Below are positions 3,324 to 22,246 of a DNA stretch of 32,000 bases, in pieces. How positions within the stretch are numbered: position 1 is the first letter of the stretch; each line of letters opens with the position of its first letter. Source of the stretch: Patescibacteria group bacterium (lineage in GTDB: Bacteria > Patescibacteriota > Minisyncoccia > UBA6257 > HR35); assembly GCA_023480925.1 (NCBI GenBank), contig JAMCWY010000003.1, positions 1 to 32,000 of the forward strand, written 5' to 3'. A program made the translations under genes and the position numbers. The notes under the pieces were generated by a model that was given only the letters and a program-made list of their open reading frames with translations, ran no database searches and was not told the origin of the DNA.

Positions 3324-3335
3324 TAAATTTTAAAA

Positions 3336-4019: not shown

Positions 4020-4924
4020 TGAGATATTTTTTAAAAGTTTGGTCGGAGGGTTGGCGAATGGCTCTCAATCGGCGACTTTTGAGTTTGGTCGGCGTCTTGA
4101 CGATTTTTTTGATCAGCCTTTTTCTTTGGAGCGGCGTTTTTATGTTTTATTTTACCCAAGAAGGAATTAAATATTTTGAAAGCAAACTTGATTTTTCCGT
4201 TTACTTTAAAGCCAGCGCCCAACAAAGCGATATTCGAAGTCTTCAATCGATTCTTGAAAACTTTCCCAATGTCGATCAGGTTGTTTACGTGACCAAGGCC
4301 GAGGCTCTGACTAATTTTAAAAGCGAAGTCAGCGGCAATCAGGTTATCTCGAAAGCTTTGACCGAACTTAACACTAACCCCCTCGTCGACTATCTCATTG
4401 TTCGGGCCAAAGATCCAACCGCTTACGCTAAAGTCGCGAGTTATTTGGATCAGTCACCCTACCGGTCCCTGATCGAGTTCGTCACTTACGCCGAGAATCA
4501 GCAAATTATTAACAAGTTTATCGGCGTTTCCAATAATCTCAGGCTGTTTATCCTGGTTTTCCTTGTTTTGGTTATGATTTTTGGCAGTTTGATTATTTTT
4601 AATTCAACCTTGGTCGCTATTTTCGCTCAGCGGGAAGAAGTTGAGGTTTTAAGACTAATCGGCGCGACCAATTGGTTTATCCGTCTGCCATTTTTAATTT
4701 TTACTTTTTTAATTTCGATCTTTGGTTATCTGATCAGTTTGTTTTTGGTTGCTTTAATTACGATGAAGACGAGCGGATTTATATCGATTATCTTGCCTCA
4801 AGCCAATTTTAGCCAGTTTATTTTTCATTACTTTTGGCCTTTGAATTTTGGCCTCTTTGGTTTTATTTTGGCGATTAACTTATTTTCAACATTCGTCGCC
4901 CTTCAGAAACATTTGAATATTTAA
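4019..4924 (+). CDS. ftsX: FtsX-like cell-division permease
   Basis: It shares a TAATG overlap with ftsE. The topology is one N-terminal TM, a ~130-aa extracytoplasmic domain, then three C-terminal TM helices. Confidence 0.75.
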   Translation: MRYFLKVWSEGWRMALNRRLLSLVGVLTIFLISLFLWSGVFMFYFTQEGIKYFESKLDFSVYFKASAQQSDIRSLQSILENFPNVDQVVYVTKAEALTNFKSEVSGNQVISKALTELNTNPLVDYLIVRAKDPTAYAKVASYLDQSPYRSLIEFVTYAENQQIINKFIGVSNNLRLFILVFLVLVMIFGSLIIFNSTLVAIFAQREEVEVLRLIGATNWFIRLPFLIFTFLISIFGYLISLFLVALITMKTSGFISIILPQANFSQFIFHYFWPLNFGLFGFILAINLFSTFVALQKHLNI

Positions 4925-4992: not shown

Positions 4993-6483
4993 ATGCTTGA
5001 AGTTTTTTTTCAAAATTCAAGTCCAAAGCAGACCGTAGTTAAAAACACCTTTTGGCTTTTAACCGAAACGGTCGTGAATAAATTGTTGAAATTTTTTCTG
5101 ATTATTTGGGCGGCGCGGATTTTAGGCGCGGCTGGTTATGGCGCGTTTTCTTTCGCTCTATCTTTCGCCGCGACGATTTTTATATTCGCCGATCTCGGCA
5201 TTGGTTCGATCTTGATCCGGGAATACCAAAAAGAACAAAATCGAATTCTTGTTTCAACCGCTCTCTGGTTAAAACTCATTTTGTCTTTAATCTCAATCTT
5301 GGTCGGCCTTGTTGTCCTGTTTTTTTTCAAAAGCGTTCAAGCTCGGCCGATTATTTTAATTTTGCTTTTGATGGATTTCATTCTTAATTTCCGCGATGGC
5401 TTCATCGCTTTTGCTCGAGCGAGGCAGAAGATGGAAGAGGAGGCCTTTTTAATCGTTCTTGAAAACATTGTTGTTTTTTTGATCGGCTTTCTCGTTTTGT
5501 TTTTCTGGCCGAGCGCTTTGAATTTTAGTTTGGCTTATTTCGCCGGCGCTTTGATTTCACTTTTGGCCACGTTTATTGTTTTTCAAAAACGGGCGAAGAT
5601 ATTTAGCCGAAATTTTGATCCGGTCTTGGCCAAAAAAATTTTGCGTTTGGCTTGGCCGTTTACTTTCGGCGGTCTCATCGCCGTCACCCTTGGTTCAATC
5701 GACATCTTGATGCTTGGCTTGCTTAAAACCGCTGCCGCGGTTGGAATTTATTCCGCCGCGATTAAAATTGTTTATGTTCTAAGCGTTATCCCTGGGATTA
5801 TTGTCGGCGCGATTTTTCCTTTAATCAGCCGTTTTCATCAAGACGAAAAAGTTCTTTTGAAAATTATTCGGGAAGGGAACAGCGCTCTTTTGCTTTTAGC
5901 TTTGCCTTTGACCCTAGGCGGTTTTTTGATCGGCGGTCGCTTGATTCATTTTTTTCTCGGTTCTCAATATCTTGCCAGTGTTTTAATTTTTAAGGTTTTG
6001 ATTTTTCTCGTGCCGCTGATTTTTCTCGTTTCGCTTTGGGACAGTTTTTTGTTGGCGGTCAACCTTCAGATCAAAGATTTTGAATATACGGCCGTCGCCG
6101 CGGCCCTGAACGTTATCTTGAACTTTATCTTGATTCCAGAGTTTTTCGGTCTCGGTGCGGCCGTGGCGATTTTAATCAGTCAGTTTGTCAATTTTGTTTT
6201 AACTTATCGGTTGACGCGGGCGTACTTCAAAAAAACATTTGAACAATCGGGTCAAACTCAAGTTTACACCGGTCTGATCGATTTTAAGTTGTTGGCGAAA
6301 TATATTTTCGCGACTTTGGTTATGACCGTCTTTGTTTTTGCCCTGACCTTAACCAGAATCTCGTCTTTCGTCATTATATTTTTGGCGATTTTTATTTACC
6401 TCGGCGCGCTTTTATTGACTCGGGAGGAGTTTTCTCTGAGTTTTGTTTCTTTGGTTAAACGGAAGTTTTTCTCGATTCGGTGA
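4993..6483 (+). CDS. MOP-superfamily (Wzx-type) polysaccharide/oligosaccharide flippase
   Basis: A 496-aa polytopic membrane protein with roughly 12-14 hydrophobic helices. The N-terminal NTFWLL...KLLKFFLIIWAARILG pattern is typical of this family. Confidence 0.75.
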   Translation: MLEVFFQNSSPKQTVVKNTFWLLTETVVNKLLKFFLIIWAARILGAAGYGAFSFALSFAATIFIFADLGIGSILIREYQKEQNRILVSTALWLKLILSLISILVGLVVLFFFKSVQARPIILILLLMDFILNFRDGFIAFARARQKMEEEAFLIVLENIVVFLIGFLVLFFWPSALNFSLAYFAGALISLLATFIVFQKRAKIFSRNFDPVLAKKILRLAWPFTFGGLIAVTLGSIDILMLGLLKTAAAVGIYSAAIKIVYVLSVIPGIIVGAIFPLISRFHQDEKVLLKIIREGNSALLLLALPLTLGGFLIGGRLIHFFLGSQYLASVLIFKVLIFLVPLIFLVSLWDSFLLAVNLQIKDFEYTAVAAALNVILNFILIPEFFGLGAAVAILISQFVNFVLTYRLTRAYFKKTFEQSGQTQVYTGLIDFKLLAKYIFATLVMTVFVFALTLTRISSFVIIFLAIFIYLGALLLTREEFSLSFVSLVKRKFFSIR

Positions 6484-6852
6484 AAATAAAGTTGTTGGAG
6501 ATAATAAAATTGATCGGATAAACGATTAAGATCGCAATGATGAAACTAAAGAGATAGTTAATTGAAAATTGGTTAATGAAGACAAAAATCAAGCCGGTGT
6601 ATATCATTAAACCAAAAAATTGAGCCAAGCCGAAAAGAATAAATCTTTTCGCGACCCGATCATCTTTGGTTTTAAAGGTTAGCCAAGCCTGAAAGGTAAA
6701 ATTAAACCAATAAGATAACCACCGATCGAACCAAAAAGATAGTTGAGGTTAAATTGGTCGATCAGAAAATAGGCTGAGCTAATATTTGAGATAAAAGCCA
6801 AACCGCCGCCCAAACTATACCAAAGAAACCATTTTAATTTTTTTCGTTTCAT
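6455..6852 (-). pseudogene. GtrA-family membrane protein gene broken by a 1-nt frameshift
   Basis: The minus-strand ATG at 6852 gives MKRKKLKWFLWYSLGGGLAFISNISSAYFLIDQFNLNYLFGSIGGYLIGLILPFRLG, then a stop at 6679-6681. Another frame continues QAWLTFKTKDDRVAKRFILFGLAQFFGLMIYTGLIFVFINQFSINYLFSFIIAILIVYPINFIISNNFIFTES to a stop at 6455-6457. The span is 398 nt, one short of a multiple of three. Confidence 0.6.
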
Positions 6853-6876
6853 TGCCAATCCTTGGATTGATTCTTT

Positions 6877-7123
6877 TTAATAGATACCAATTGGCGATGA
6901 TGATATTTTGAGCAATCTCATTTCTTCCTTCAAGGCGGTGTTATGATCTTGTTTCTGTTCCGAGACGACTTTGGCGCCGAGATTTTGGGCGATTAGAGCG
7001 GTCTGATCGGTTGAGTCGTTGTCAACGACAATAATCTCGTCAACTTCTTTGGTAATTTTCTCGATGACTTTGGCGATTGAGATCGCCTCGTTATAGCAGG
7101 GGGGTAATAACCGATATTTTCAT
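6877..7123 (-). pseudogene. Remnant of a family-2 glycosyltransferase (GtrB/DPM1-like), frameshifted and truncated
   Basis: The minus-strand ATG at 7123 gives MKISVITPLL then a stop. Removing one C from the C6 run (G6 at 7099-7104 on plus) gives MKISVITPCYNEAISIAKVIEKITKEVDEIIVVDNDSTDQTALIAQNLGAKVV... This is the classic GT2 N-terminus, but the reading ends after ~81 aa against well over 200 in intact members. Confidence 0.6.
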
Positions 7124-7180
7124 GACTTAATAATCTTAACACAGCTTCTCCGTTTAATTTTAGGTTTAATTAAAATAGGG

Positions 7181-7244
7181 CTTGTGTTAAAATATTCAAA
7201 TGTCGTCAGGGCAGTTTAAAATTTGATTAAGGGAAATAAAAAAA
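7181..7244 (+). repeat. Left copy of a ~64-nt imperfect direct repeat (copy of the infA promoter/leader)
   Basis: cttgtgttaaaatattcaaatgtcgtcagggcagtttaaaatttgattaagggaaataaaaaaa aligns to 19315-19378 at about 53 of 66 columns by hand. It contains TGtTAAAAT at 7185-7193, followed 6 nt later by an ATG at 7200. Confidence 0.7.
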
Positions 7245-7414
7245 CGCGGGTGACAAAAAATTTTACCGGCCGATCGATTCGATAAATTTATAAGCGGACG
7301 CGATCAAGACGAGTTCAATTTTAAAACGGCAACCAGAAGTTAAATTTAACGATTTGGTTTCAATAATAATTGAAAGCGTTCGTAATTATTAAGCGATATG
7401 GGGTAAAAAAAATT

Positions 7415-8362
7415 ATGAATAAAGATTTGCTTCAAGCTTTAAAAAATCATGAATTGCATGGTTTTGTAATAAAATCTTGGTCTTGGTTCGGACCGATTCG
7501 ATCGCGCGCGCTGGCGATACTGGGTTTTCTTAAGGGTTATTTTTCATTTGGCGAAACGCTTAATTTGATGTTAACGACTAAGTATAAAAGTACAGCTCTT
7601 CGAGTTAAATTCGCTAATTTTATCAATACCGAAACCAGAAAAGCAATTGCGCTATTTGTTAATAGCGATAATTCAATCGATATTTTTGGCGACAAGATGT
7701 ACGCGCCGTTTAATAGCGTGGCTGAATTATTTGATTTGATTTATTCAATTTTATATTTTGATCAATATGGCGCTGGGAAGTTTCTACAAAAAGATTCAGT
7801 TGTGATAGACGCCGGCGCGAATATAGGCACGTTTTCCATATTAGCCAGCCATTTGGCTCCAAATGGCAAGGTCTACTCTTTTGAACCGGTTAAATATACA
7901 TTTGAACTTCTGCGCAAAAACACTGTCAATTACAAAAACGTTAGCTCTTATAATTACGGCTTAGGCGATAAAGAATCAGAAAAAAAAATTTTTATTTATA
8001 AAGACACAACTGGCGGTAACGTTTTAGAAGATAGTGAAGTGGTGGAGCAGAGAATAAGAGAAGACTTCTCCGGCTCCGAAAAAATTAGAATTACGACCAT
8101 AGATAAGTTTGTTAAGGAAAACAATATAAGCAAAATTGATTTTATAAAGATTGATACAGAAGGATATGAAGCGCGGATAATTGAAGGTGCGAGAGAAACA
8201 ATAAAGCGATTCAAACCGATAATGGCGATGTCCGCTTATCATAATGATAATGACAAAGAACTGTTGCCAAGAATAGTTAAATCAATAGATCAGAATTATA
8301 AATATAAGCTCGAGAAAGTTTTTGAAGAGGATTTTATTTTTTATATAGATGATAAAACCTAG
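7415..8362 (+). CDS. FkbM-family SAM-dependent methyltransferase
   Basis: VVIDAGANIGTFS glycine-rich SAM loop. VYSFEP. IDFIKIDTEGYE, which is characteristic of FkbM/Methyltransf_21. The ORF track starts at TTG 7370; the first ATG is 7415. Confidence 0.8.
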   Translation: MNKDLLQALKNHELHGFVIKSWSWFGPIRSRALAILGFLKGYFSFGETLNLMLTTKYKSTALRVKFANFINTETRKAIALFVNSDNSIDIFGDKMYAPFNSVAELFDLIYSILYFDQYGAGKFLQKDSVVIDAGANIGTFSILASHLAPNGKVYSFEPVKYTFELLRKNTVNYKNVSSYNYGLGDKESEKKIFIYKDTTGGNVLEDSEVVEQRIREDFSGSEKIRITTIDKFVKENNISKIDFIKIDTEGYEARIIEGARETIKRFKPIMAMSAYHNDNDKELLPRIVKSIDQNYKYKLEKVFEEDFIFYIDDKT

Positions 8363-9383
8363 GATTAGACTATTGATTCAATCTCCAGCTTCATTGGGTT
8401 TTGGCGGCGGCAATGTTGTTGTCGCAATGTTGAATAAATACATTAATAAATTTGGTTATGATATTGATTTTCTTAATTTTATAGATCGCAATGATGATTT
8501 TGATGTGTTGCATTTAATCGGTATGCAAGCGGGTAATTGTTTAAACGGCCTTACGGCTAAAACTAAAGGGAAAAAAATCGTTCTTCAATCTCTTTTTTAT
8601 ACCGATACTAATCTATTTTTATACAAGCTAACGGAGAGATTTATGAGCCACAAATTTTGGGCATTTTCTCAAAATAAATTTTATTTAATGCAACAATTGT
8701 TAAATATAACTGACGTGATATTGGTTAGTAGTAAAGCTGAGCTTGAACAGATTAAATATATTTTTAGTTTTGATAAATCAAAAGCAAAAATAATTCATAA
8801 TGGAATAGAAACGGAGATTTTTGACGACATAGACGATAATTTTATTGAGAAATTTAATTTAAAGCCCGGCTATGTTTTGTGTGTCGCGAATATAAATAAA
8901 AAAAAGAATATTCTAAATTTAATTAAAGCCTTTTTACTTACAGGCCTGGATACGAAACTTGTTTTAGTCGGTATTTATAACGATGATCCGGATTTATTCT
9001 ATTGCAACGAAGTTAAAAAACTTATTAATGAAAGTGAAGGGAAGATAGTACGTGTTGAAAATATTTCTAAGGGGTTACTGGCCTCCGCTTACTTAAACGC
9101 TAAAATTCACGTATTGCCAAGCTTTTGGGAATTGCCCGGTTTAGTTAGTTTAGAGGCCGGCCTGGCCGGCGCCGGCCTTGTTCTTGGAGATTGTGCTCCG
9201 GTGCGGGAATATTTCGGCAATTTGGCTACTTATTGTAACCCAAACGATATATCTGATATTACCGATAAAATAACCAAGGCTTACAATTTATCTCCCACGA
9301 CCAAACTCAGTCAATTTATAAAAACTAACTATTCTTGGACGGAAATAGCCAAGAAGTTAGCTGTTATTTATGACTCATTATGA
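8349..9383 (+). CDS. GT4-family (group 1) glycosyltransferase
   Basis: The C-terminal HVLPSFWELPGLVSLEAGLAGAGLV resembles the E-x7-E region of retaining GT4 enzymes. It overlaps the upstream gene by 14 nt. Confidence 0.75.
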   Translation: MIKPRIRLLIQSPASLGFGGGNVVVAMLNKYINKFGYDIDFLNFIDRNDDFDVLHLIGMQAGNCLNGLTAKTKGKKIVLQSLFYTDTNLFLYKLTERFMSHKFWAFSQNKFYLMQQLLNITDVILVSSKAELEQIKYIFSFDKSKAKIIHNGIETEIFDDIDDNFIEKFNLKPGYVLCVANINKKKNILNLIKAFLLTGLDTKLVLVGIYNDDPDLFYCNEVKKLINESEGKIVRVENISKGLLASAYLNAKIHVLPSFWELPGLVSLEAGLAGAGLVLGDCAPVREYFGNLATYCNPNDISDITDKITKAYNLSPTTKLSQFIKTNYSWTEIAKKLAVIYDSL

Positions 9384-10315
9384 TGGAGCAACACGAAAAA
9401 ATATTAGTCAGTGTCATCATTCCTACCTATAACAGGCCCAAGCTTGTTCTTAGAGCGATTAGTAGTGTTCTTAATCAGACTTACCAAAATTTTGAAGTTG
9501 TGGTGATGGATGATTCTCGCAATGAGGATACGGCCAATGCTATCGGAAGCGTTAAAGACTCAAGAGTAAGGTATACTCATAATCTTGTCCGTCTTGATTT
9601 TTGCGAAAATAAAAATCAAGGCGTCAAAAGCGCCGATCACGCTTCCGAGTACATTACTTTTCTTGACGATGACGACGAATACTTGCCGATGTTTTTGGAA
9701 AAGACTGTTGATTTTTTGGATAAACATAAGGATGTTTTCGCGGTTACCACTTACGCCGAGTTCAAGACGCAGGACGGCGAATTGATAAACATATACCCTT
9801 GCGAATGCGAGTCGTGGAAAGTAACAATGGGTAATGGTTGGGTTTTAAGGAAAAGCGTGTTTTTCGCGGATAATATTTGGTACGATAAAAGTTTAATGTC
9901 CGAGGATCTTGATTTTGGCATAGCCGTTGCTCAAAAACACAAGTGGAAGTGTTTGCCGGAAGTTTTGAGGGTGTATTACGGCTATCCCGCGGTCAAGGGT
10001 GCGTCGCATTCAACTTCGTTTACTAAGAGTACTCCGACCGCGGAGGTAACCAGATTTTTAGAGAAGAATTTTGAGTTTTATAAAAGATCGGGGCCGGAAG
10101 CTCTTGCTTGGGCCCATTTCTTAATGGGTAAGATGCTTTGTCGGGCTAACCAAATCAAAGAAGGCAGGCAATATCTCAAGAAGGCGTTTTATTATGATCG
10201 CAGGATTGTCTACCTTTTTTATTATCTGCTTTCTGTTTTTTCGCCGTGGTCGTTCGGAAATATGCGTCTTGCCATTCTGAAGAATAAGTTTAAAAATAAG
10301 ATTAAGAGCTTATGA
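9380..10315 (+). CDS. GT2-family glycosyltransferase
   Basis: VSVIIPTYNRPKLVLRAISSVLNQTY, VVVMDDS and FLDDDDEY (DxD) motifs. ATGA overlaps at both ends. Confidence 0.85.
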   Translation: MMEQHEKILVSVIIPTYNRPKLVLRAISSVLNQTYQNFEVVVMDDSRNEDTANAIGSVKDSRVRYTHNLVRLDFCENKNQGVKSADHASEYITFLDDDDEYLPMFLEKTVDFLDKHKDVFAVTTYAEFKTQDGELINIYPCECESWKVTMGNGWVLRKSVFFADNIWYDKSLMSEDLDFGIAVAQKHKWKCLPEVLRVYYGYPAVKGASHSTSFTKSTPTAEVTRFLEKNFEFYKRSGPEALAWAHFLMGKMLCRANQIKEGRQYLKKAFYYDRRIVYLFYYLLSVFSPWSFGNMRLAILKNKFKNKIKSL

Positions 10316-10851
10316 GAATTTTAGATTTCGGTTGCGGAAGCAAAAAAATTCAAAGAGAAAACGCCGTCGTTGTCGGTGTGGACAATAACACGGAAAGCGA
10401 CGCCGATGTCATCCACGACTTAAACCAATTTCCTTATCCGTTTGAAAACGACAGTTTCGACGAAGTTGTTTGTTTTGATGTTTTGGAACATCTTGTTGAT
10501 ATTCCAAAAGTGATGGCGGAAATTTATCGTCTAAGCAAGAAAGGCGCGGTTATCAAGATCAGAACTCCGCATTTTAGCAGTCCGTACGCCGCCATGGATC
10601 CGACTCATTGCCATCATTTCAGCGTTTTTTCATTTGATATTTTTTGCCGCAACCGTAAGATAATACCGCATAATTTCACGAATAATTTTTTTATTTTAAC
10701 AAAAAGAAAAATTATTTTTCCAAAACTGACGAGAGTTGTTTTAGCGCCGCTGACTTTTTTGTTCAATCAGTATTCTCTTCGTTACGAGCAATATCTGACT
10801 TTTATATTTCAAGCGGAAAATATTTATTTGGAACTGGAAGTTGAAAAATAA
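10312..10851 (+). CDS. Class I SAM-dependent methyltransferase (Methyltransf_11-like)
   Basis: ILDFGCGS motif I. FDEVVCFDVLEHL and LSKKGAVIKIRTPH post-I motifs. Confidence 0.7.
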   Translation: MRILDFGCGSKKIQRENAVVVGVDNNTESDADVIHDLNQFPYPFENDSFDEVVCFDVLEHLVDIPKVMAEIYRLSKKGAVIKIRTPHFSSPYAAMDPTHCHHFSVFSFDIFCRNRKIIPHNFTNNFFILTKRKIIFPKLTRVVLAPLTFLFNQYSLRYEQYLTFIFQAENIYLELEVEK

Positions 10852-10852
10852 G

Positions 10853-11986
10853 ATGAGAATAGGTATTGATGCGAGAGTCTTGGAAAGAAAGATGACCGGT
10901 GTCGGCCGCTATGTTTTGAACTTAATTAAGAATATTTCTTCCTGCGACGAGACGAACGAATACTTTATTTTTTCTTACGCGCCTCTGAAGGATTTTGTCG
11001 CTTCGAATCCGAACATTAAAAATATTCCGACTTTAAATTTTTTGCCTCGCGGCGTCCTTCAGAAATTAATATCGCCTTTCTGGATGAATTTGATCCTGCC
11101 AACATTTCTCCGTCGCGAAAAAATAGATCTGTTTTTTTCTCCAAATCACGTCTTGCCTTTTTTGAGGGGGAAAACAAAAAACGTGGCAGTGATTCTTGAT
11201 TTGTTTAATATTATCAATAAGAAGTTTCATTCTTTTTTGTATCGTTTATACGTCAGCTTTACCTTATTTAATTCCGTCAAGAAAAGCGATGCGATTATTA
11301 CAATTTCCGAAGCGTCCAAAAAAGATATAATAAAATTTTTAAAAGTTCAAGGAGACAAGGTAAAGGTTATTTATCTCGCGGCTGATGATAAATTCAAACC
11401 AAGAAACATAAGCGATGAGGAAAAACGTAAATTAAGAGCAAGATACGACTTGTCCGAAGAATTTATTTTATATGTCGGCGTGATAGAAGAAAGGAAAAAC
11501 ATGGCCGGAATTTTAAAAGTTGCCGATGAACTTTTGAAAAGAGGCCTAAAAACGCCGATTGTCTTGATTGGCCGTGTGGGCTATGGCGGCAAGAAATACA
11601 TAGAAAACGTAAAAAATCGCGAGAATGTTTTTTACAGAGGATTTGTCGAAGAAGCCGACTTGCCCTATATTTATAACATCTCGTCTTTATTTTTTTTCCC
11701 ATCGCTTTATGAGGGATTTGGTCTTCCGCCCCTTGAGGCGATGCGATCAGGTGTGCCCGTGGTCGCGTCTAATGCCTCGTCGCTTCAGGAAGTGATAGGC
11801 GATGGGGGGATTATGCTTTCGCCCGATGATTATCCCGGTTTTACCGACGTCATAGAAAGGATTATGAAAGATGATAATCTACGTTTAGAGCTTATACAAA
11901 AAGGGCTAGCGCGAGCGAGTAAGTTTAGTTTCGAGAGAATGGCTTGCGAAACGGTCGAGACATTAAACAGAGTTAAACAACTATGA
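10853..11986 (+). CDS. GT4-family glycosyltransferase (mannosyltransferase-like)
   Basis: FPSLYEGFGLPPLEAMRSGVPVVASN is the canonical E-x7-E motif. ATG 10853 lies 2 nt after the upstream stop; the ORF track uses TTG 10841. Confidence 0.85.
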   Translation: MRIGIDARVLERKMTGVGRYVLNLIKNISSCDETNEYFIFSYAPLKDFVASNPNIKNIPTLNFLPRGVLQKLISPFWMNLILPTFLRREKIDLFFSPNHVLPFLRGKTKNVAVILDLFNIINKKFHSFLYRLYVSFTLFNSVKKSDAIITISEASKKDIIKFLKVQGDKVKVIYLAADDKFKPRNISDEEKRKLRARYDLSEEFILYVGVIEERKNMAGILKVADELLKRGLKTPIVLIGRVGYGGKKYIENVKNRENVFYRGFVEEADLPYIYNISSLFFFPSLYEGFGLPPLEAMRSGVPVVASNASSLQEVIGDGGIMLSPDDYPGFTDVIERIMKDDNLRLELIQKGLARASKFSFERMACETVETLNRVKQL

Positions 11987-12936
11987 CGAAGAAAATATTA
12001 ATTACTGGCGTGGCCGGGTTTATTGGCAGCAATCTCGCCGAACGTTTAATCAAGGAAGGTTATCGGGTCGTCGGTGTCGATAATTTATCGGCTGGCGTTT
12101 TAGAGCAAGTTCCCAAAGAGGTTGAATTTCACAAAATTGATATTCGTTCGAAGGATATTTTCCCGGTCTTCAATGGCGTTGATGTTGTTTTTCATTTTGC
12201 CGCTAAAAATTGTATCTCTGAATGTCAACTTTATCCGCTCGAAACGGCCGACGTGAACATAATCGGCACGCTTAACGTTTTTGACGCCTCGTTGAAAGCT
12301 AAAGTTGATAGAGTAATTTACGCGGAGTCGTCGGCAATATACGAAGGGACAGAGATATTCCCAACGCCGGAAACTAATTTTACGCCTCAAACTTTTTATG
12401 CCATAACAAAGGCGTCCAATCATCTATTCGCCAAAGCTTACCAGCAGTTTTTCGGTTTGAAGACAGTTGGAATGAGGTATCTTAATGTCTACGGTCCAAG
12501 GCAAGATTATCGCCGGGTCGTGGCGCCGGTCATGAGCGCTTTTATAATAAAGTTTTTAATGGGCAAAAGACCAAAAATCTTTGGCAATGGATTAAAAAGA
12601 AGAGATTTTATCCATGTTGACGATATAAATGATTTTCATATAATGTGTATTAATAATGAAAAGGTTATTAATAAGGTGTTCAATTTGGGCGGCGGTAAAA
12701 ATTATTCGATTATGGAAATATACAAAATGATCCAAGATATTTTAAAGATTAAAATTGAACCGGAATTTTTGCCTGATGTTCCAGGGGAAGCTTTTGAAAG
12801 TTTGGGTGATATAACGGAAGCTCGTAAAATTGGTTGGGAGCCTAAGATGCCTCTCCGCGATGGTCTGATTGGAATGATTGATTATATAAAAAAAGAAATA
12901 ACAAAAGGTAATATTAAAAGCGATACCGTCTTATGA
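11983..12936 (+). CDS. Extended-SDR NAD-dependent NDP-sugar epimerase/dehydratase
   Basis: ILITGVAGFIGSNL Rossmann motif and YAITKASNH catalytic YxxxK. About 317 aa, GalE/WbpP-like in length and layout. Confidence 0.85.
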   Translation: MTKKILITGVAGFIGSNLAERLIKEGYRVVGVDNLSAGVLEQVPKEVEFHKIDIRSKDIFPVFNGVDVVFHFAAKNCISECQLYPLETADVNIIGTLNVFDASLKAKVDRVIYAESSAIYEGTEIFPTPETNFTPQTFYAITKASNHLFAKAYQQFFGLKTVGMRYLNVYGPRQDYRRVVAPVMSAFIIKFLMGKRPKIFGNGLKRRDFIHVDDINDFHIMCINNEKVINKVFNLGGGKNYSIMEIYKMIQDILKIKIEPEFLPDVPGEAFESLGDITEARKIGWEPKMPLRDGLIGMIDYIKKEITKGNIKSDTVL

Positions 12937-13919
12937 TTATTACGCGAACTCCTTTTAGAATAACTTTGGGCGGCGGCGGCACGGATTTGCCGTCTTATTA
13001 CTCAAAATACGGCGGATTTATTTTTTCCGCCGGAATCGATAAGTATATGTTTGTTGACGTGAATAGACCGGTCGTCGACGATTTGATCCGTTTGAAATAT
13101 TCAAAGTCGGAGACGGTTGAAAATGTTGAAGAAATTCAGCATAGCATAGCGAAAGAAATTTTAAAATTTATCGGCATTGACAAATGTATAGAAATAAGTT
13201 CGGTCGCCGACATACCGGCCGGGACCGGTTTGGGTTCATCGAGTTGTTATGCTGTGGGACTTTTGCACGCTCTGCATGCTTTAAAAAGAGATTACGTGCC
13301 GTTAGATAAATTAGCGGATGAGGATTTTAAAATCGAAGCGGAAATTTTAGGCAGACCAATAGGGAAGCAAGATCCTTATATGGCCGCCATCGGCGGATTA
13401 ACTGTTTTGGATATAGACCAAGAAGGAGGAGTTAAAGCAAGGAAAGCTAATATTTCGTACGAGGCGGCCAACGCTCTCAATGGTAATATGCTTGTGTTTT
13501 TTACCGGTTTGACCAGGAGCGCGGACGAGATATTAGTTGAGCAAAAGAAAGCGATTAATGAAGAAAAAAAGGATGTTCTTGAAAGTATGCATTATATTAA
13601 AGAACTCGGTTACAAAATATTAGAAGCGGTTGAATCGGAAAATATTGCCGACGTGGGCAAGCTATTTGATACCCACTGGCAATATAAGAAAAAAATTTCA
13701 AACAAGATGTCAAATGAAAGATTTGATAAAATTTACAGAATCGCTAAAGAAAACGGCGCCTTGGGCGGAAAAATTTCCGGTGCGGGCGGGGGAGGATTTT
13801 TTACTTTTTACGTGGAAAATAACCATAAAAAGTTTAGAGAAGTGATGAAAGATTTAAACCTGCGAGAAATGAGATATCGTTTTGACTTTGAAGGTTCGAA
13901 GGTTTTAATTGATTTTTAA
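12933..13919 (+). CDS. hddA: GHMP-family sugar kinase, probable D-glycero-alpha-D-manno-heptose 7-phosphate kinase
   Basis: MIITRTPFRITLGGGGTDLPSYY N-terminus. PAGTGLGSSS GHMP motif II. GAGGGGF motif III. It clusters with gmhA, gmhB and a nucleotidyltransferase. Substrate is inferred from context. Confidence 0.7.
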   Translation: MIITRTPFRITLGGGGTDLPSYYSKYGGFIFSAGIDKYMFVDVNRPVVDDLIRLKYSKSETVENVEEIQHSIAKEILKFIGIDKCIEISSVADIPAGTGLGSSSCYAVGLLHALHALKRDYVPLDKLADEDFKIEAEILGRPIGKQDPYMAAIGGLTVLDIDQEGGVKARKANISYEAANALNGNMLVFFTGLTRSADEILVEQKKAINEEKKDVLESMHYIKELGYKILEAVESENIADVGKLFDTHWQYKKKISNKMSNERFDKIYRIAKENGALGGKISGAGGGGFFTFYVENNHKKFREVMKDLNLREMRYRFDFEGSKVLIDF

Positions 13920-13929
13920 ATTTGGAATA

Positions 13930-14757
13930 ATGACGTTAAAAAATAAAGTGGCTGTGGTAACCGGCGGATCGGGTGGCATAGGTAAGGTCGTGGCGGAAGT
14001 ATTAGTTAAAAACGGCGCGACCGTTATAATTATTGGTAAAAAACAAAAAAAGTTGAAAGGAGTCGTTAATTCTTTTGAAGAAAAGGGATTTAAGATTGAT
14101 TGCGAAAAATGCGATATTTCTAATGTGTCAGAAGTCAGTCGCGTCGTCATAAAAATTATCGCGCTTTTAAAAAGAATAGATATTTTGGTAAACTGCGCCG
14201 GCGTTCAATCGCCCATCGGTCCGTTTGTTGATAATACTTTTTTGGCTTGGGAAAAAAATATCAAGGTTAACTTGTTGGGGACGGTCTTAATGTCTAAAAA
14301 AGTTATTCCTTATATGATAAAAAGAAAAAGTGGTTATATTATCAATTTTGCCGGCGGCGGCGCGACCTCGTCTCGGCCTAATTTTTCAGCCTACGCCGCG
14401 GCCAAAACGGCGATCGTGCGGTTTACCGAAGTTTTGGCTGATGAGGTTAGACGATACAACATTAATGTAAACGCTGTCTCGCCGGGCGCGGTTAACACCA
14501 AAATGACCGAAGAAGTTTTAAAAGTTGGAATGAAAGCCGGTTTAAAAGAATTGACCGATGTTAAAAGACGAATCAAAGAAGGCGGAACGTCGCCGGAGCT
14601 TGTGGCTAATCTGATTGTTTTTTTATCGTCGGCTAAATCAAAAGGATTATCAGGAAGATTGATTAGCGCCGTTTGGGACAAATGGCAAGAGTGGGATGCA
14701 AAAGCTATTAGAGAAATAATGAAAAGCGATAAATACACATTAAGAAGAATTAAGTAA
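13930..14757 (+). CDS. Classical short-chain dehydrogenase/reductase
   Basis: VAVVTGGSGGIG cofactor motif, NCAG, and YAAAKTA catalytic YxxxK. The first ATG is at 13930; the ORF track uses TTG 13909. Confidence 0.85.
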   Translation: MTLKNKVAVVTGGSGGIGKVVAEVLVKNGATVIIIGKKQKKLKGVVNSFEEKGFKIDCEKCDISNVSEVSRVVIKIIALLKRIDILVNCAGVQSPIGPFVDNTFLAWEKNIKVNLLGTVLMSKKVIPYMIKRKSGYIINFAGGGATSSRPNFSAYAAAKTAIVRFTEVLADEVRRYNINVNAVSPGAVNTKMTEEVLKVGMKAGLKELTDVKRRIKEGGTSPELVANLIVFLSSAKSKGLSGRLISAVWDKWQEWDAKAIREIMKSDKYTLRRIK

Positions 14758-14758
14758 A

Positions 14759-15781
14759 ATGTCAGAAATAAATATTAAGAATATGGGCGTTGGTATTGTC
14801 GGTGCTGGCTTAATTGGTTGGAGACGAGCGGAAGTAATTAAGGCGTCGAAAAAAGGCAAACTTTTAGTGGTCACAGACGCTGATTTTGAAAAAGCCAAAA
14901 AATTAGCGGAAAAATATAATTGCCAAGCGTGTCAAAGTTGGTCGGACCTTCTTAAGAAGGAAGACGTAAAAATTGTTATTGTCGCCGTGCCAAATAAATT
15001 TGCCGCGCCAATTTCAATCGCCGCGTTAAAGAAAAACAAACATGTTTTTTGCGAAAAACCGCTTGGCCGAAACGCGAATGAAGCAAAAAAAGTTTTGACG
15101 GCCGTAAAAAAATACAAAAAAGTTTTTAAGGTCGGTTTTAATCATCGTTTTCACGCGGCCGTCGCTCAAGCAAAAAAAATTTTTGACGAAGGCGGGATAG
15201 GAAAACTTATGTTCATTCGCGCTCGATATGGTTACGGCGGCAGGTTCGGGATGGAAAAAGAATGGCGAATGGACAAAAATATTTCCGGCGGCGGCGAACT
15301 GTTGGATCAAGGTGTTCATATTATTGATCTGGTGCGATGGTTCGGCGGCGAACCAAAAAAAGTGTACGGTTTAGTCCAAACCAAATTTTGGCAAACTCAG
15401 GTTGACGATAACGCCTTCGTGATTATGTCGAATGATAATGTTACGGCGGAGTTTCATGTCAGTTCGACTAATTGGAAGAATATATTTTCCTTCGAAATTT
15501 TCGGAGACAAAGGTTATTTGGAGATAAGCGGCAAGGGTGGTAGCTACGGTGAAGAAATTCTTATTTGGGGCAGAAGAAGAAAAAAATTCGGAGTGCCAAA
15601 AATAAAAATTTTTAAATTTGGAAAAGATATTAGTTGGGAGCGAGAATGGTTAAATTTTTTTAACGGAATAGTCAAGAAAACTAAGATTAATGGTGATACC
15701 AACGACGGTTATGCCGCCAATAAAATCGTTGAAGCAATTTATAAATCAGCTATAATGAAAAAAGTCGTTGATTTAAATTAA
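14759..15781 (+). CDS. Gfo/Idh/MocA-family NAD(P)-dependent oxidoreductase
   Basis: GVGIVGAGLIG Rossmann motif and VFCEKPL (EKP) motif. About 340 aa. Confidence 0.8.
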   Translation: MSEINIKNMGVGIVGAGLIGWRRAEVIKASKKGKLLVVTDADFEKAKKLAEKYNCQACQSWSDLLKKEDVKIVIVAVPNKFAAPISIAALKKNKHVFCEKPLGRNANEAKKVLTAVKKYKKVFKVGFNHRFHAAVAQAKKIFDEGGIGKLMFIRARYGYGGRFGMEKEWRMDKNISGGGELLDQGVHIIDLVRWFGGEPKKVYGLVQTKFWQTQVDDNAFVIMSNDNVTAEFHVSSTNWKNIFSFEIFGDKGYLEISGKGGSYGEEILIWGRRRKKFGVPKIKIFKFGKDISWEREWLNFFNGIVKKTKINGDTNDGYAANKIVEAIYKSAIMKKVVDLN

Positions 15782-15801
15782 CAGTTTATAATTTTTAGAT
15801 T

Positions 15802-16509
15802 ATGAACGATTTAAAAATAAAAATATTCGGCGACGGCGCGGATAAGTCAAGTATGCTTGATTTGTATCAGAAGCCGTACATTAAAGGTTTCACCACTAAT
15901 CCGACGTTAATGAGAAAGGCCGGCATTGAAAATTATGAAGCGTTCGCCAAGGATATTCTTTCTTTAATTAAAGATCGTCCCGTTTCTTTTGAGGTTTTTT
16001 CCGATGAGTTTTCGGAAATGGAAAGGCAGGCTAAAATCATAGCGAGTTGGGCTAAAAATGTTTATGTCAAAATACCGATTACTAACACGAAAGGCTTGAG
16101 TTCTTTTGAAGTTGTAAAAAATTTATCCAATGATGGAATCAAATTGAACATCACGGCGATTTTCACTCCAAAACAAGTTAAACATATCGCCGCCGCCTTG
16201 GCCTCGGGCGTGCCATCGATTATTTCCGTTTTTGCCGGTCGAGTCGCCGACACCGGCGTTGATCCAGTGCCGTTAATGAAAGAATGTAAAGAAATATTGA
16301 AAGATTATCCGGACGCCGAACTTTTGTGGGCTAGTCCGAGAGAGCTTTTAAATATATTCCAGGCTGATCAGATTGGTTGTGATATTATTACGGTTACACC
16401 CGATGTCTTAAAGAAACTTGATAGTGTTGGCTATGATTTGGAAAAATTTTCCATTGATACGGTCAAAATGTTTTTTGACGACGGTCAGAAAGCCGGTTAT
16501 AAACTTTAA
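15802..16509 (+). CDS. tal: Small transaldolase / fructose-6-phosphate-aldolase-family enzyme
   Basis: KIFGDGAD ... GFTTNPTL N-terminal motif and the YVKIPIT Schiff-base lysine context. About 235 aa, typical of the short transaldolase subfamily. Confidence 0.75.
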   Translation: MNDLKIKIFGDGADKSSMLDLYQKPYIKGFTTNPTLMRKAGIENYEAFAKDILSLIKDRPVSFEVFSDEFSEMERQAKIIASWAKNVYVKIPITNTKGLSSFEVVKNLSNDGIKLNITAIFTPKQVKHIAAALASGVPSIISVFAGRVADTGVDPVPLMKECKEILKDYPDAELLWASPRELLNIFQADQIGCDIITVTPDVLKKLDSVGYDLEKFSIDTVKMFFDDGQKAGYKL

Positions 16510-16532
16510 TTTTAATTAATCTCTAAGATAAA

Positions 16533-17135
16533 ATGGACAATTACATCGATTCTTATTTCGAAGAAGTAAAAAAAATAGCCGATAATATTGATAAAAGCTC
16601 CATTAAAAAAGTTATTGATATTTTAAAAAATATTCGATCTAATAGCGGTCGTTTGTATATTATTGGCGTTGGCGGAAGCGCTGGCAGCGCTAGTCATGCC
16701 GTCAACGATTTTAGAAAGTTGGCTGGGATCGAAGCTTACGCGCCAACGGATAATGTTTCCGAGTTGACCGCGAGAACCAATGACGAGGGCTGGCAAACTA
16801 TTTTTTCCGAATGGCTTAAAGGAAGCAAATTAAACAATAATGACGTTATTTTAGTTTTATCCGTTGGTGGCGGCAACGAAGAAAAGAATATCAGTCCGAA
16901 TATAGTCGAAGCTCTTAAGCTGGCGAAAGATGTCGGCGCTAAAATTATCGGCATCGTCAGCCGAGACGGCGGCTACACTAAAAAAGTCGCTGACGCCTGC
17001 GTTCTTATCCCGGTTGTCAATGATAAGGCAATAACGCCTCACGCCGAATCATTTCAGGCTGTTGTTTGGCATTTAATTGTTTTCCATCCGGATTTTCAGT
17101 TGAACTCGGGTAAATGGGAATCGATCAAAAAATAA
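16533..17135 (+). CDS. gmhA: Single-SIS-domain protein, probable sedoheptulose-7-phosphate isomerase
   Basis: YIIGVGGSAGSASHAVNDF and ILVLSVGGGN SIS motifs. It is 200 aa, matching GmhA length, and sits next to gmhB. Confidence 0.7.
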   Translation: MDNYIDSYFEEVKKIADNIDKSSIKKVIDILKNIRSNSGRLYIIGVGGSAGSASHAVNDFRKLAGIEAYAPTDNVSELTARTNDEGWQTIFSEWLKGSKLNNNDVILVLSVGGGNEEKNISPNIVEALKLAKDVGAKIIGIVSRDGGYTKKVADACVLIPVVNDKAITPHAESFQAVVWHLIVFHPDFQLNSGKWESIKK

Positions 17136-17701
17136 AAATTCAGAAAAGAGCGGTTTTTCTTGATCAAGATGGAACCGTGATTAAACATGTAGATTTACTT
17201 ATTGACGTTAAAGACATTAAAATACTTCCCGGCGTCGTGACCGCCATTAGACGACTTCGTCAATTAGGTTTTTTGGTTATAGTGATTACGAATCAACCAG
17301 TAGTGGCAAGAGGATTAATTTCTGAAAATGGCGTAAAAGTATTAGAAAAAAGAATTTCTTGGTTGTTATCTCAAAAGGGAGTTCTTGTTGACGATTTTTT
17401 CTTTTGTCCTCATCATCCCGAGGCAACTTTGAAAAAATATCGGGTGAAATGTCAATGTCGAAAACCGGCGCCAGGAATGATTTTAAAAGCTGCCAAGAGA
17501 TACAACATAGATTTGAAAAACAGCTTTATGGTGGGCGATGCCTTAATAGATAGCGTTACTGGCCATCGAGCCGGGGTTAAAACTATTCTTGTCAAAACCG
17601 GTCCGGGTCATTCCAAATTGGACAAAATATATAAAGAAGAAAAGCCAGATAAAGTCGTTAAAAAAATTTACGAGGCGGTAAAGCTTATATGCGAAAAATA
17701 A
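17114..17701 (+). CDS. gmhB: D,D-heptose 1,7-bisphosphate phosphatase (HAD superfamily)
   Basis: AVFLDQDGT (DxDGT), VITNQ, CPHHPE...CQCRKPAPGM (zinc loop plus conserved Lys) and VGDALIDSVTGHRAG. It tracks E. coli GmhB closely as I remember it. Confidence 0.85.
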   Translation: MGIDQKIKIQKRAVFLDQDGTVIKHVDLLIDVKDIKILPGVVTAIRRLRQLGFLVIVITNQPVVARGLISENGVKVLEKRISWLLSQKGVLVDDFFFCPHHPEATLKKYRVKCQCRKPAPGMILKAAKRYNIDLKNSFMVGDALIDSVTGHRAGVKTILVKTGPGHSKLDKIYKEEKPDKVVKKIYEAVKLICEK

Positions 17702-18420
17702 ATCAAGCTGTTATTCTTTGCGCTGGTCTGGGGACGCGCCTGCGTCCGCTAACTGACAATATGCCGAAACCGATGGTGCCAATTCTGGGTAAGCCGATGC
17801 TTTTATGGAATATAGAGCAGTTTAAGAAATACGGCGTTATTAATTTTAAAATAAATTTATATCATCTTCCCGACGTGATTAAAAATTATTTCGGCGATGG
17901 CTCTAAATTTGGAGTAAAGATTGAATATAGTTTTGAAAAAGAAATTTTAGGCACGGCCGGCGCCCTGGGCGAATTTGACAAAAAGCTAGATGATTTTTTC
18001 TTTTTGATTTACGGCGATGTTGTTAGTTTTATTGATTACAATAAGATGGCGGTTAAATTTTTTGGGTTGGAAAAACCTATTGGCATGCAGCGAGTTGGGC
18101 TTACGTCAAATTATGGCGACGCGAATGTGGCCGAACTCGACCACAATAATAAATTTGTGACTGTATATATAAAGCCTCATTCGGAAATTTATTCTAATGC
18201 GTATCGAATGAGGGGTTCATTTATTTTCAGTAAAAAAGTCTTGAATTATATCGAAAAAGGAAAATGTTCAGAAATAAGTAAAAATTTGTTGCCCAAACTT
18301 ATTGAAAATGATGAAAATTTTTACGGCTATGAGTGTGATGAATTTTCAAAGGGCGTGGATACGATCGATAAATTAAATGAGGTCGAAGATTACATCAGAA
18401 ATAATCATATGATTATATGA
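17689..18420 (+). CDS. hddC: Sugar-1-phosphate nucleotidyltransferase, probable heptose-1-phosphate guanylyltransferase
   Basis: AVILCAGLGTRLRPLTDNMPKPMVPILGKPML signature and about 243 aa. Nucleotide and sugar specificity are inferred from context only. Confidence 0.65.
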   Translation: MRKINQAVILCAGLGTRLRPLTDNMPKPMVPILGKPMLLWNIEQFKKYGVINFKINLYHLPDVIKNYFGDGSKFGVKIEYSFEKEILGTAGALGEFDKKLDDFFFLIYGDVVSFIDYNKMAVKFFGLEKPIGMQRVGLTSNYGDANVAELDHNNKFVTVYIKPHSEIYSNAYRMRGSFIFSKKVLNYIEKGKCSEISKNLLPKLIENDENFYGYECDEFSKGVDTIDKLNEVEDYIRNNHMII

Positions 18421-19256
18421 ATGATATTGGTCTTTTTAGGGTGACAGTGCTTATAGCTACTTGGAATCGAAAAGACTTGATTGGAAAAGCGATAGAGAGT
18501 GTTTTGCAACAGTCTTTTCCATCGTGGGAATTAATTGTAATAGACGATGGTTCCACGGATGGCACAGAAGAAGTGGTTGCTAAATATATTTTTCGTGATT
18601 CAAGAGTGAAATATATTAAGATTGATCATATTGGAAGGATTGCTGTGGTCTCTAATCGTGGTTTACGATTGGCGGTCGGCGATTATATCGCCATATTGGA
18701 TGATGATGATGTTTGGATAGATGAAGATAAATTAAAAAAACAGGTTGATTTTTTGGATAAAAATCAACTTTATGTTGGTTGCGGCGGCGGCATGATTGGA
18801 GTTGATCGGGCTGGCAACGGAATGTTTAGATCTTTAAAACCTGAGAGTGACGCTGAAATAAAAAAAAGAGCTTTGTGCGCAAATCCAATGATTAATTCCG
18901 CGACGATGTTTAGAAGAAGTATCGCTGAAAAAATTGGATTTTATGATGAAACCTTATCGCAGTTCGCCGATTGGGATTTCTGGTTGAAAATTGGAACGAT
19001 GGGGAAGTTGTATAATTTTCAGGAATACTTCGTGTTATATCTTGTCTGGGATAAGAGCAGTTCTTTTACTAAACAAAAAGAAAACGCGCGATCGGCGTTA
19101 ACAATAGTGAAAAAATATAGAAAAATTTATCCAAATTTTAAAGTAGCCTTCGTCTTGGCTGTTTTATATAGAAGTTATACGTTCATACCGGCAAGCGTTA
19201 GAAGATTTTTGAATCCAATATTTTCCATTGCCAAAAAAAAAATTTTTTCTAAATAG
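18417..19256 (+). CDS. GT2-family glycosyltransferase
   Basis: VTVLIATWNRKDLIGKAIESVLQQSF, LIVIDDGSTDGT and ILDDDD (DxD) motifs. Confidence 0.85.
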   Translation: MNDIGLFRVTVLIATWNRKDLIGKAIESVLQQSFPSWELIVIDDGSTDGTEEVVAKYIFRDSRVKYIKIDHIGRIAVVSNRGLRLAVGDYIAILDDDDVWIDEDKLKKQVDFLDKNQLYVGCGGGMIGVDRAGNGMFRSLKPESDAEIKKRALCANPMINSATMFRRSIAEKIGFYDETLSQFADWDFWLKIGTMGKLYNFQEYFVLYLVWDKSSSFTKQKENARSALTIVKKYRKIYPNFKVAFVLAVLYRSYTFIPASVRRFLNPIFSIAKKKIFSK

Positions 19257-19314
19257 TTAATAATTTTATCCCAGTCGTGGCGAGGGCCGTTTTGTTCAGT
19301 TTGGCCCCGAGACT

Positions 19315-19378
19315 TTTGTGTTAAAATAATTTAAATGTCGTTAGAGCGGGGTAAAATTCGATTGGGAGAATGAAAAAA
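19315..19378 (+). repeat. Right copy of the ~64-nt direct repeat (the functional infA promoter/leader)
   Basis: tttgtgttaaaataatttaaatgtcgttagagcggggtaaaattcgattgggagaatgaaaaaa aligns with 7181-7244. Confidence 0.7.
19319..19327 (+). promoter_or_regulatory. Candidate extended -10 promoter (TGtTAAAAT) upstream of infA
   Basis: tgttaaaat, followed 7 nt later by an ATG at 19335. Sequence match only. Confidence 0.4.
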
Positions 19379-19576
19379 GAGCTGGTTGAAGGCCGGGTGC
19401 TTGAGAGTTTGCCCGCCGCTTCTTTCCGCGTTGAGTTAAGCGATGGTCGGGAAATTTTGGCTTATTTGGCCGGCCGGATGCGTTTGCATTATATCAAGAT
19501 TGTCGCCGGGGACGCGGTTACGATCGAACTTTCCCCCTACGATCAAAATCGGGGCAGGATTATTAAACGAAAATAA
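19370..19576 (+). CDS. infA: Translation initiation factor IF-1
   Basis: [32 protein letters not shown]...[21 protein letters not shown] matches the IF-1 S1-fold consensus along its whole length. Confidence 0.95.
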
Positions 19577-19629
19577 TTAGTCGTTTGAACTTTTGAAATT
19601 AATTTAAAATTTTATTGAAATATAAGGCA

Positions 19630-19743
19630 ATGAAAGTTTCCGCCGTGGTTAAAAAAAGATGTTTAAAGTGCAAGGTCGTCCGTCGAAAAAAACGTTTGTA
19701 CGTGATTTGCTCGAACCCTCGGCATAAACAAAGACAAGGTTAA
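19630..19743 (+). CDS. rpmJ: 50S ribosomal protein L36 (absent from the ORF track because it is short)
   Basis: Hand translation gives [37 protein letters not shown], 37 aa, with the C-x2-C...C...H zinc motif. It sits in the canonical position after infA. Confidence 0.9.
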
Positions 19744-19812
19744 TGGCAATCGGGACAAGTTCGATTTTGTTTTGGCTAAGGTTTTAAAAATAGAAGCGGC
19801 TGGCTTTAATTA

Positions 19813-20646
19813 ATGAGAAGAAGTCTGATTTTTTATTTAAGCTTGGCGGCGATCGCCATTGTTTTGTTATTAAGTTTTTTAATTTTTTATCTTGAGCAAA
19901 AGGCCGCTCGAAGTTTGGCCGAGAACGGCGTCAACAATAAAACCGGATTAACCAAAGTTGATTCGAGCCAGGCTCAAAAAAATCCGACGGTCGTTCAGGT
20001 TAATTTTCAGACCGATGATGGCGTTAATATTGTCGGCGATTATTACGATAATCCAGCGGCAAAGTTCGTCGGCATTGTCGCGCCGATGTTTCGAGCCGAT
20101 CGAAAAGCTTACGCTGATTTTTGCCGCCGGCTTCAAGCAAATGGTTATAGCGTTTTGGCGATCGATTGGCGCGGTCAGGGCGCGAGCGTTGATTCGTCCA
20201 AGGGCAAACTTAATTATCAAAATTTTAGTCAGGCTGATTTTCAGAACGCGATTTTTGATTTGGAAGCGGCGAGTAAGTTTTTACGCGGCAAAGGCTTCCA
20301 AACTAATAACCAATTTTTAATCGGCAGCGGCTTGGGCGCGAACTTAGTTTTGAAATTTTTAGGCGGCAATAATAACTTCCGCTTGGCTGTTTTGGTCGCG
20401 CCGCGATTGAATGACTCAAGAGTCAAAATTGAATCTCTGATTGATCCGGGTCTTGGCCCGAAATTAATTTTGGTCGTTTCCGCCTCGGACAGCGCCGCCG
20501 TCGAGGCAGTGACGTTTTTGAACCAGAAAATGCCAGGTAGCCAAACAATAATTTATCCAAGCGGCAATGATAGCCGAGGCCAATTTTTGGACGATCCCGG
20601 TTTATCTGATAAAATTATAATGTGGCTTAAGACTAAGTTGTTCTAA
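19813..20646 (+). CDS. Membrane-anchored alpha/beta-hydrolase-fold protein lacking the catalytic Ser and His
   Basis: N-terminal TM LIFYLSLAAIAIVLLLSFLIFYL. AIDWRGQGAS matches the D-x-RG-x-G-x-S loop of the fold. The nucleophile elbow reads LIGSGLGA where G-x-S-x-G is expected. The protein has no histidine at all. Confidence 0.6.
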   Translation: MRRSLIFYLSLAAIAIVLLLSFLIFYLEQKAARSLAENGVNNKTGLTKVDSSQAQKNPTVVQVNFQTDDGVNIVGDYYDNPAAKFVGIVAPMFRADRKAYADFCRRLQANGYSVLAIDWRGQGASVDSSKGKLNYQNFSQADFQNAIFDLEAASKFLRGKGFQTNNQFLIGSGLGANLVLKFLGGNNNFRLAVLVAPRLNDSRVKIESLIDPGLGPKLILVVSASDSAAVEAVTFLNQKMPGSQTIIYPSGNDSRGQFLDDPGLSDKIIMWLKTKLF

Positions 20647-22132: not shown

Positions 22133-22139
22133 TAAGCTT

Positions 22140-22145
22140 ATTATA
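22140..22145 (-). promoter_or_regulatory. Candidate -10 box (TATAAT) 7 nt upstream of the Nudix ATG
   Basis: The minus strand reads tattataat-aagctta-ATG. Sequence match only. Confidence 0.35.
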
Positions 22146-22246
22146 ATAGATATAGGCTTGAAGAATTAAATCAAACCACTTATGTTTTTTGACCATTCTG
22201 ATTCGAGGAAGATTTTTTATATAATTCTTTAATTAGTTTAATTAAA

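Follow-up and report, generated by a model that had tools for sequence, protein, structure and literature searches.

The window analysed here, positions 1 to 32,000 of contig JAMCWY010000003.1 (assembly GCA_023480925.1) from a Patescibacteria group bacterium, contains a two-copy direct repeat on the + strand, at 7181-7251 and 19315-19386, whose copies bracket a 12-kb glycan operon of 14 tightly packed, co-directional genes (7415-19256, + strand). The right copy comprises the promoter, leader, and first 5–6 codons of infA, the gene for translation initiation factor 1 (IF1), and runs into the infA ATG at 19370. The left copy duplicates the infA core promoter, leader, and first codons in decayed form: the ribosome-binding site and start codon have been lost and the promoter elements retained. 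From the matches of these elements to promoter consensus sequences, we consider that the left copy is probably a reused infA promoter that now drives the 14-gene operon, with the right copy driving infA-rpmJ.

The two copies align locally with 55 of 72 ungapped columns identical and one 1-nt indel, giving an overall identity of 76% with 17 mismatches that are spread throughout, and with no identical core longer than 12 nt. A first-pass annotation of this DNA had aligned 7181-7244 with 19315-19378 by hand, and its count of 53 identical columns in 66 is exact. The Smith-Waterman score of the repeat is 37, compared with 22 for the best of 30 whole-window shuffles and 18 for the next-best real match in the window, and a two-copy profile (nhmmer) recovers both copies at E ~1e-18 (left copy, E 2.4e-18), with nothing besides these copies below E = 1 in the window. 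Both regions are AT-rich and carry generic -10-like hexamers, as would two promoters that resembled one another by chance, however these scores refute such an explanation and leave it a negligible likelihood. An assembly artefact is likewise ruled out, with both copies present in independent ENA, Logan, and NCBI assemblies, and the left copy is identical in strains L009, L010, and L011.

The right copy extends across GGGAGA and the infA ATG into roughly five codons (MKKE..., also present in a distant IF1 gene). Since the repeat includes the start and first codons of infA, it is derived from infA and not the reverse. The earlier reading that the right copy reaches the infA start codon, with no ATG at that place in the left copy, is borne out, as is its placing of the left copy, as then delimited, 170 nt upstream of the first operon gene. 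The further statement that the repeats delimit exactly the block 7415-19256 holds for the bracketing, whilst “exactly” is loose, with 163 nt of unrelated spacer (7252-7414) separating the left copy from the operon and 58 nt lying between the last operon gene and the right copy. The left copy is contained in a gap of 291 nt (7124-7414), and most of the right copy in one of 113 nt (19257-19369). The repeat could possibly reach further upstream toward the gene boundaries, with TTAATAATCTTAACACAG at 7128-7145 and TTAATAATTTTATCCCAG at 19258-19275 (+ strand) identical at 15 of 18 positions and collinear with the core. This extension is marginal, its local score being reached by 3% of shuffles, and a global alignment of the 57/58-nt upstream pieces gives p = 0.025, a result equalled by 4 of 79 control intergenic pieces.

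Two candidates for the origin of the spacer downstream of the left copy were rejected. A full decayed copy of infA is not supported, since the score of 7252-7414 against the rest of infA is attained by 169 of 500 shuffles, and the translated peptide has neither a Pfam match at E <= 10 nor a BLASTP alignment. The spacer also seemed at first to align with the 3′ end of rpmJ and the gap downstream of it, as would be left by an internally deleted infA-rpmJ copy. When 1250 windows were ranked in four scoring schemes, however, this target region came only 41st to 133rd, a match no better than background. The frame continuing from the left copy reads ...ILPADRF...SGRD..., which by eye is IF1-like, an impression that alignment did not support. 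Folding z-scores of -0.2 to +0.9 and a consensus fold of -1.35 kcal/mol give no indication of a structured RNA, and Rfam returned nothing for the repeat and leader at gathering score nor, noise aside, at E <= 1. In the spacer, positions 7357-7376 weakly match the Rfam family CRISPR-DR6 (23 bits, gathering score 39, E 0.013); this is a single copy with no array and is almost certainly due to chance.

Both copies hold sequences of the sigma-70 type, namely an extended -10-like element, TGTTAAAAT (TGnTAnAAT-class), and a TTyAAA-16 nt-TAAAAT arrangement. The first of these, P1, was recognised by sequence match and lies at 7185-7193, with its right counterpart at 19319-19327, and is identical at 9 of 9 positions. 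The second, P2, is TTCAAA-16 nt-TAAAAT at 7195-7222 in the left copy (-35-like hexamer 7195-7200, TAAAAT 7217-7222), and TTTAAA-16 nt-TAAAAT at 19330-19357 in the right (-35-like hexamer 19330-19335, TAAAAT 19352-19357), with 11 of 12 hexamer positions shared between the copies and only about half of the P2 spacer. As the first-pass annotation had observed, TGTTAAAAT is followed 6-7 nt on by an ATG in both copies (7200 and 19335). Taken together, the three promoter elements are identical at 20 of 21 positions, such that 1 of the 17 mismatches falls within the 21 promoter positions (p = 0.012, in a test chosen after seeing the data), and the other mismatches are concentrated in the spacer of P2 and at the ribosome-binding site and start codon.

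The promoter of the operon must lie within 7124-7414, because the upstream neighbour is on the opposite strand. This neighbour is a decayed, divergent pair of genes, GT2 and GtrA (6455-7123, - strand, from six-frame translation), the decay of which had been proposed previously and is confirmed here. GT2 is cut to 81-89 aa in all strains, with its start codon mutated in L009, and GtrA carries a frameshift in both the window and L010 and is intact at 134 aa in L009 and L011 (the pair occupying 13120-13793 in L009 and 3635-4309 in L011). The GT2/GtrA region is ~6% divergent between strains, with several indels, against ~2.2-2.5% elsewhere. Within the gap, P2 of the left copy is the sole + strand sigma-70-like match, and the suggestion of the first-pass annotation that a captured promoter copy drives the island is judged reasonable on these grounds, with the left copy providing the only consensus-like + strand promoter before the operon.

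A single rearrangement could have left two ~71-nt pieces of the infA 5′ region, each with core promoter, short leader, and first codons, around the 12-kb operon. The right copy would still drive and start infA, whilst the left copy would have lost its translation signals and kept its promoter elements, with the operon transcribed from it via a leader of ~190-215 nt. Both the activity of the left-copy promoter and the origin of the arrangement in a single event are inferred from the sequence.

Several points weigh against an active left copy. The case for activity comes entirely from consensus matches, and a scan for promoter consensus sequences is about as productive in shuffled sequence (45 real matches against 38 +/- 7), a leader of ~200 nt with no detectable structure lacks an explanation, and the arguments from conservation depend on few observations. 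In a strain with 97.5% identity, 6 of 6 left-gap and 4 of 4 right-gap substitutions fall outside the repeat copies, a pattern that is weakly significant (p ~0.19 for the left gap and ~0.07 for the right). Additionally, the comparison covered a single species, and the search for further copies described below covered ~43 kb of genome. An appreciable but clearly smaller likelihood is therefore left for the left copy being an inert scar of rearrangement, with the operon using a weak or non-consensus promoter elsewhere in 7252-7414. Such a scar would be consistent with the loss of the ribosome-binding site and start codon, with the 163 nt of unrelated sequence between the copy and the first gene, with the weak strain-conservation statistics, and with consensus matches being no commoner than in shuffles. 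It does not readily account for promoter elements that are almost unchanged despite an overall identity of 76%, for the lack of any other + strand promoter-like site in the gap, or for a copy that shows none of the divergence and indels of the adjoining GT2/GtrA pseudogene, which gives a measure of the pace at which unconstrained sequence alters at this locus.

The reused-promoter reading was also weighed against one in which the repeat is a shared regulatory module, such as a promoter with an operator, placed at several sites in the genome and co-regulating infA, the glycan operon, and other genes. The first-pass annotation had named many copies upstream of unrelated genes as the sign of a generic promoter. 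The profile finds only the two copies, and no third, in ~43 kb of genome (the window and 11 kb adjoining) holding about ten other promoter regions, and within this span no dispersed family of promoter or intergenic repeats is seen. The 22-nt core gives only chance-level matches, none extending past the pattern, in 596 Gb of reference genomes and in JGI metagenomes, the source genome being outside both collections. Furthermore, the similarity extends through the start and first codons of infA, which a generic promoter module would not carry. Whilst both copies are conserved between strains, as a shared module would be, we regard this explanation as unlikely.

A further proposal is that the shared module acts as a small regulatory device and not only as a promoter. 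The ATG that follows P1 opens a short open reading frame (ORF) in each copy, that of the left copy (7200-7226, + strand) starting 6 nt after the P1 -10 element and reading directly as MSSGQFKI*, and that of the right copy (19335-19373, + strand) comprising 12 codons, with its TGA stop overlapping the infA ATG as ATGA. Transcripts from P1 might be leaderless, with IF1 synthesis coupled to leaderless initiation via the 12-codon ORF and the ATGA overlap, and the same module on the operon would then tie surface-glycan expression to the state of translation initiation. Leaderless initiation differs from the canonical mode in its dependence on initiation factors. We consider this proposal speculative and unlikely. 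The peptides are not conserved between the copies, in which the ATG and its spacing from the -10 element are the sole common features, and coding by the short ORFs is doubtful because the peptides differ.

Elsewhere in the window, the ftsE and atpB promoters (3315-3338 and 23681-23700) carry the extended -10-like sequences TGGTATAAT and TGATATAAT, 12 and 8 nt before the ATG. They are of the TGnTATAAT type, their geometry matches both -10-like elements of the infA repeat, which makes the arrangement proposed for the left copy plausible, and their spacing would imply mRNAs with little or no leader.

The block between the copies was annotated with Pfam and NCBIfam, and its genes are separated by intergenic gaps of -22 to +23 nt. 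Genes 1-7 encode an FkbM methyltransferase, a GT4, a GT2, a SAM methyltransferase, a second GT4, an epimerase/dehydratase, and an HddA-like GHMP kinase, and genes 8-14 an SDR, a Gfo/Idh/MocA oxidoreductase, a transaldolase, a GmhA-like SIS isomerase, a GmhB-like phosphatase, a nucleotidyltransferase, and a further GT2. The transaldolase, GmhA-like isomerase, HddA-like GHMP kinase, GmhB-like phosphatase, and sugar-1-phosphate nucleotidyltransferase form a set for sugar activation, and three redox or epimerase enzymes, two methyltransferases, and four glycosyltransferases form a set for tailoring and transfer. The operon probably encodes a nucleoside diphosphate (NDP)-heptose glycan pathway. This assignment is probable and not certain because most of the NCBIfam matches fall below their curated cut-offs, the transaldolase being above its own. 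The Wzx-type flippase needed by such a pathway (4993-6483, + strand; PF01943 and PF13440) lies outside the repeats and has a flank-like GC content at third codon positions (GC3) of 0.473, such that the functional glycan locus extends beyond the repeats. A homologue of this flippase sits in a heptose-type glycan locus of the distant organism L015.

The composition of the block is somewhat GC-poorer than that of its flanks, as had been anticipated, with per-gene values of GC 0.379 and GC3 0.378 in the block and GC 0.420 and GC3 0.452 in the flanks. The difference in GC3 is real but modest (Mann-Whitney p = 0.0008, with 20 flanking genes as reference). The counts of GC in single 60-nt lines given by the first-pass annotation are correct in value, however they exaggerate the contrast relative to these per-gene figures. 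Glycan loci are commonly GC-poor regardless of origin.

No integrase or transposase was detected by Pfam or NCBIfam among the 14 operon genes or the flanking genes, in agreement with the first-pass annotation, and only sugar-pathway families are found in the block. Transposons and insertion sequences typically generate target-site duplications of 2-14 bp whose copies are identical at the outset, and they bring a transposase and terminal inverted repeats. The copies described here resemble such duplications in that direct repeats flank a block, and differ in that there is no transposase and the duplication is ~71 nt at 76% identity; our repeat scan was for direct repeats only, and terminal inverted repeats were not searched for. 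Duplication or capture of promoters by small segmental duplications is known in general from bacterial genome evolution, and the left copy is similar to such cases in being a short promoter-bearing segment placed before other genes, with the promoter elements kept and the rest decaying. In contrast to a clean promoter transfer, the copies bracket the block that they may regulate and the left copy carries the first codons of its source gene, and for these reasons a rearrangement junction is the better description.

The presence of direct repeats derived from a target gene at both junctions raises the further explanation that the copies are attL/attR-type junctions of a site-specific element that targeted the infA 5′ end and brought a replacement promoter, with its integrase since lost. 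As described in PMC2791158 (citing Hochhut and Waldor 1999), SXT/R391 integrative conjugative elements insert in the 5′ end of prfC and supply a replacement promoter and 5′ end. In the present locus, too, a large block adjoins the 5′ end of a gene for a translation factor and has direct repeats of this 5′ region on either side, and the gene keeps a working promoter and start on the block side (the intact right copy), with the other copy displaced, a geometry matching that of SXT at prfC (PMC2791158). The modestly lower GC of the block between the repeats would also fit an integrated element. Unlike SXT/R391, the block carries no gene for an integrase, excisionase, transfer function, or phage protein; all 14 of its genes are of sugar pathways, and no recombinase is seen. 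Additionally, the ~71-nt repeats are only 76% identical, with mismatches throughout and no clear identical core, and the block is fixed in all sampled strains. We therefore consider att-type junctions very unlikely.

The surroundings of infA-rpmJ suggest that local gene order has itself changed. infA (19370-19576, + strand, 68 aa) matches PF01176 at E 2e-22, and rpmJ, encoding ribosomal protein L36 (19630-19743, + strand, 37 aa), matches PF00444 at E 1.5e-18 and does not have rpsM as its next gene. In each of four distant relatives (L019, L020, L027, and L028), rpsM-rpsK-rpsD-rpoA-rplQ comes directly after infA-(rpmJ), whereas here infA-rpmJ (19370-19812 region) is followed by an alpha/beta hydrolase gene. 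Judged by these gene orders, the ribosomal-protein/rpoA cluster is broken right after rpmJ in this lineage and the local order is derived. Since distant relatives have infA joined to rpsM-rpoA, infA-rpmJ may itself be the piece that moved. The insertion picture of the first-pass annotation, in which the flippase-gtrA-GT2 genes would abut infA-rpmJ directly in relatives lacking the island, is not upheld by the distant relatives, which show either the rpsM-rpoA linkage or, in two others, a tRNA gene at the place of infA-rpmJ. In these two (L007, 128-202, and L008, 331-405), the tRNA gene stands immediately upstream of a block of hydrolase, small ORF, hypothetical gene, and serS; they are the only two distant relatives with this block, and their contigs end within 130-330 nt of the tRNA.

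Comparison is limited by the distance of the available relatives. The alpha/beta hydrolase has 3 homologues among 5.8 billion proteins, two of them on usable contigs, and the nearest homologues of the flippase are 36-38% identical and lie in unrelated glycan loci. The nearest relatives share 36-42% protein identity for the Wzx flippase and hydrolase, and 69-76% for IF1. Relatives with IF1 proteins of 67-76% identity have leaders that cannot be aligned and a different gene order. The block is carried by all seven assemblies of the species, and no island-free relative was found among the sampled relatives, the nearest of which have 36-76% protein identity and a different gene order.

Three histories fit these data. 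Insertion of the block may have taken place in the infA 5′ region and duplicated ~71 nt of it, or infA-rpmJ may have been relocated, leaving a promoter footprint behind. Alternatively, illegitimate recombination anchored by homology may have brought in the block together with a donor infA 5′ end, with the resident promoter displaced in the process (mechanism in PMC5361080). Homology-facilitated illegitimate recombination has been proposed for cassette displacement in the type VI secretion system (T6SS) and Rhs arrays of Vibrio cholerae (PMC5361080), with which the present locus shares one homologous anchor, a second side joined illegitimately, and an orphaned gene-end fragment beside the block. 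A mechanism of this type would explain why the left copy stops abruptly a few codons into infA. In the V. cholerae arrays, the orphans are 3′ ends and immunity genes, and the steps are documented by related strains, whereas here the fragment is a promoter and 5′ end. Of the original proposal of insertion or duplication at the infA 5′ region, the two-copy duplication stands, whilst the insertion of a 12-kb block is unproven.

To our knowledge, Patescibacteria (candidate phyla radiation, CPR) have very small genomes, and the group offers no cultured models and hardly any promoters mapped by experiment. Should the left copy be active as a promoter, the locus would provide a clean natural case of a housekeeping promoter reused for a 12-kb surface-glycan pathway in this group, with candidate transcription starts at ~7200/7229 and ~19335/19364. 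The repeat marks a rearrangement junction that could help to reconstruct the reshuffling of such genomes, including the split of infA-rpmJ from the ribosomal-protein/rpoA cluster, and the 71-mer could serve as a diagnostic tag for tracking the locus in metagenomes. Most likely, the repeat is a minor, rather ordinary scar of rearrangement that records an event of a known kind and involves no new element or mechanism, and its practical value is modest.

The remainder of the window begins with a complete 16S rRNA gene (53-1646, + strand, Rfam 1373 bits), followed directly by a response regulator (1795-2286, + strand) and not by 23S and 5S genes (53-1794), such that the rRNA genes appear to be unlinked. 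A release factor with PCRF and RF-1 domains (2289-3299, + strand) comes next; its longest ORF has a TTG start 3 nt after the response-regulator stop, and gene callers differ on its length (336 against 328 aa). ftsE and ftsX occupy 3336-4924 (+ strand). On the right, the alpha/beta hydrolase gene (19813-20646, + strand) is followed, in order, by a small zinc-finger-like ORF, a hypothetical gene, a NUDIX gene, serS, the ATP synthase operon, and relA/spoT. In assembly GCA_023381135.1 (L004), contig JAMCTP010000017.1 begins 76 nt upstream of infA, and its last 223 nt (2641-2863) are the reverse complement of window positions 21942-22164, joined head-to-head to the sequence before them; the contig end has probably been folded back on itself in assembly. 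The ATP synthase operon (23698-31738; L024/L025) is interrupted twice, by a MazG-family gene between atpA and atpG (27154-27483) and by relA/spoT on the opposite strand between atpD and atpC, with atpC lying just past the right end of the window.

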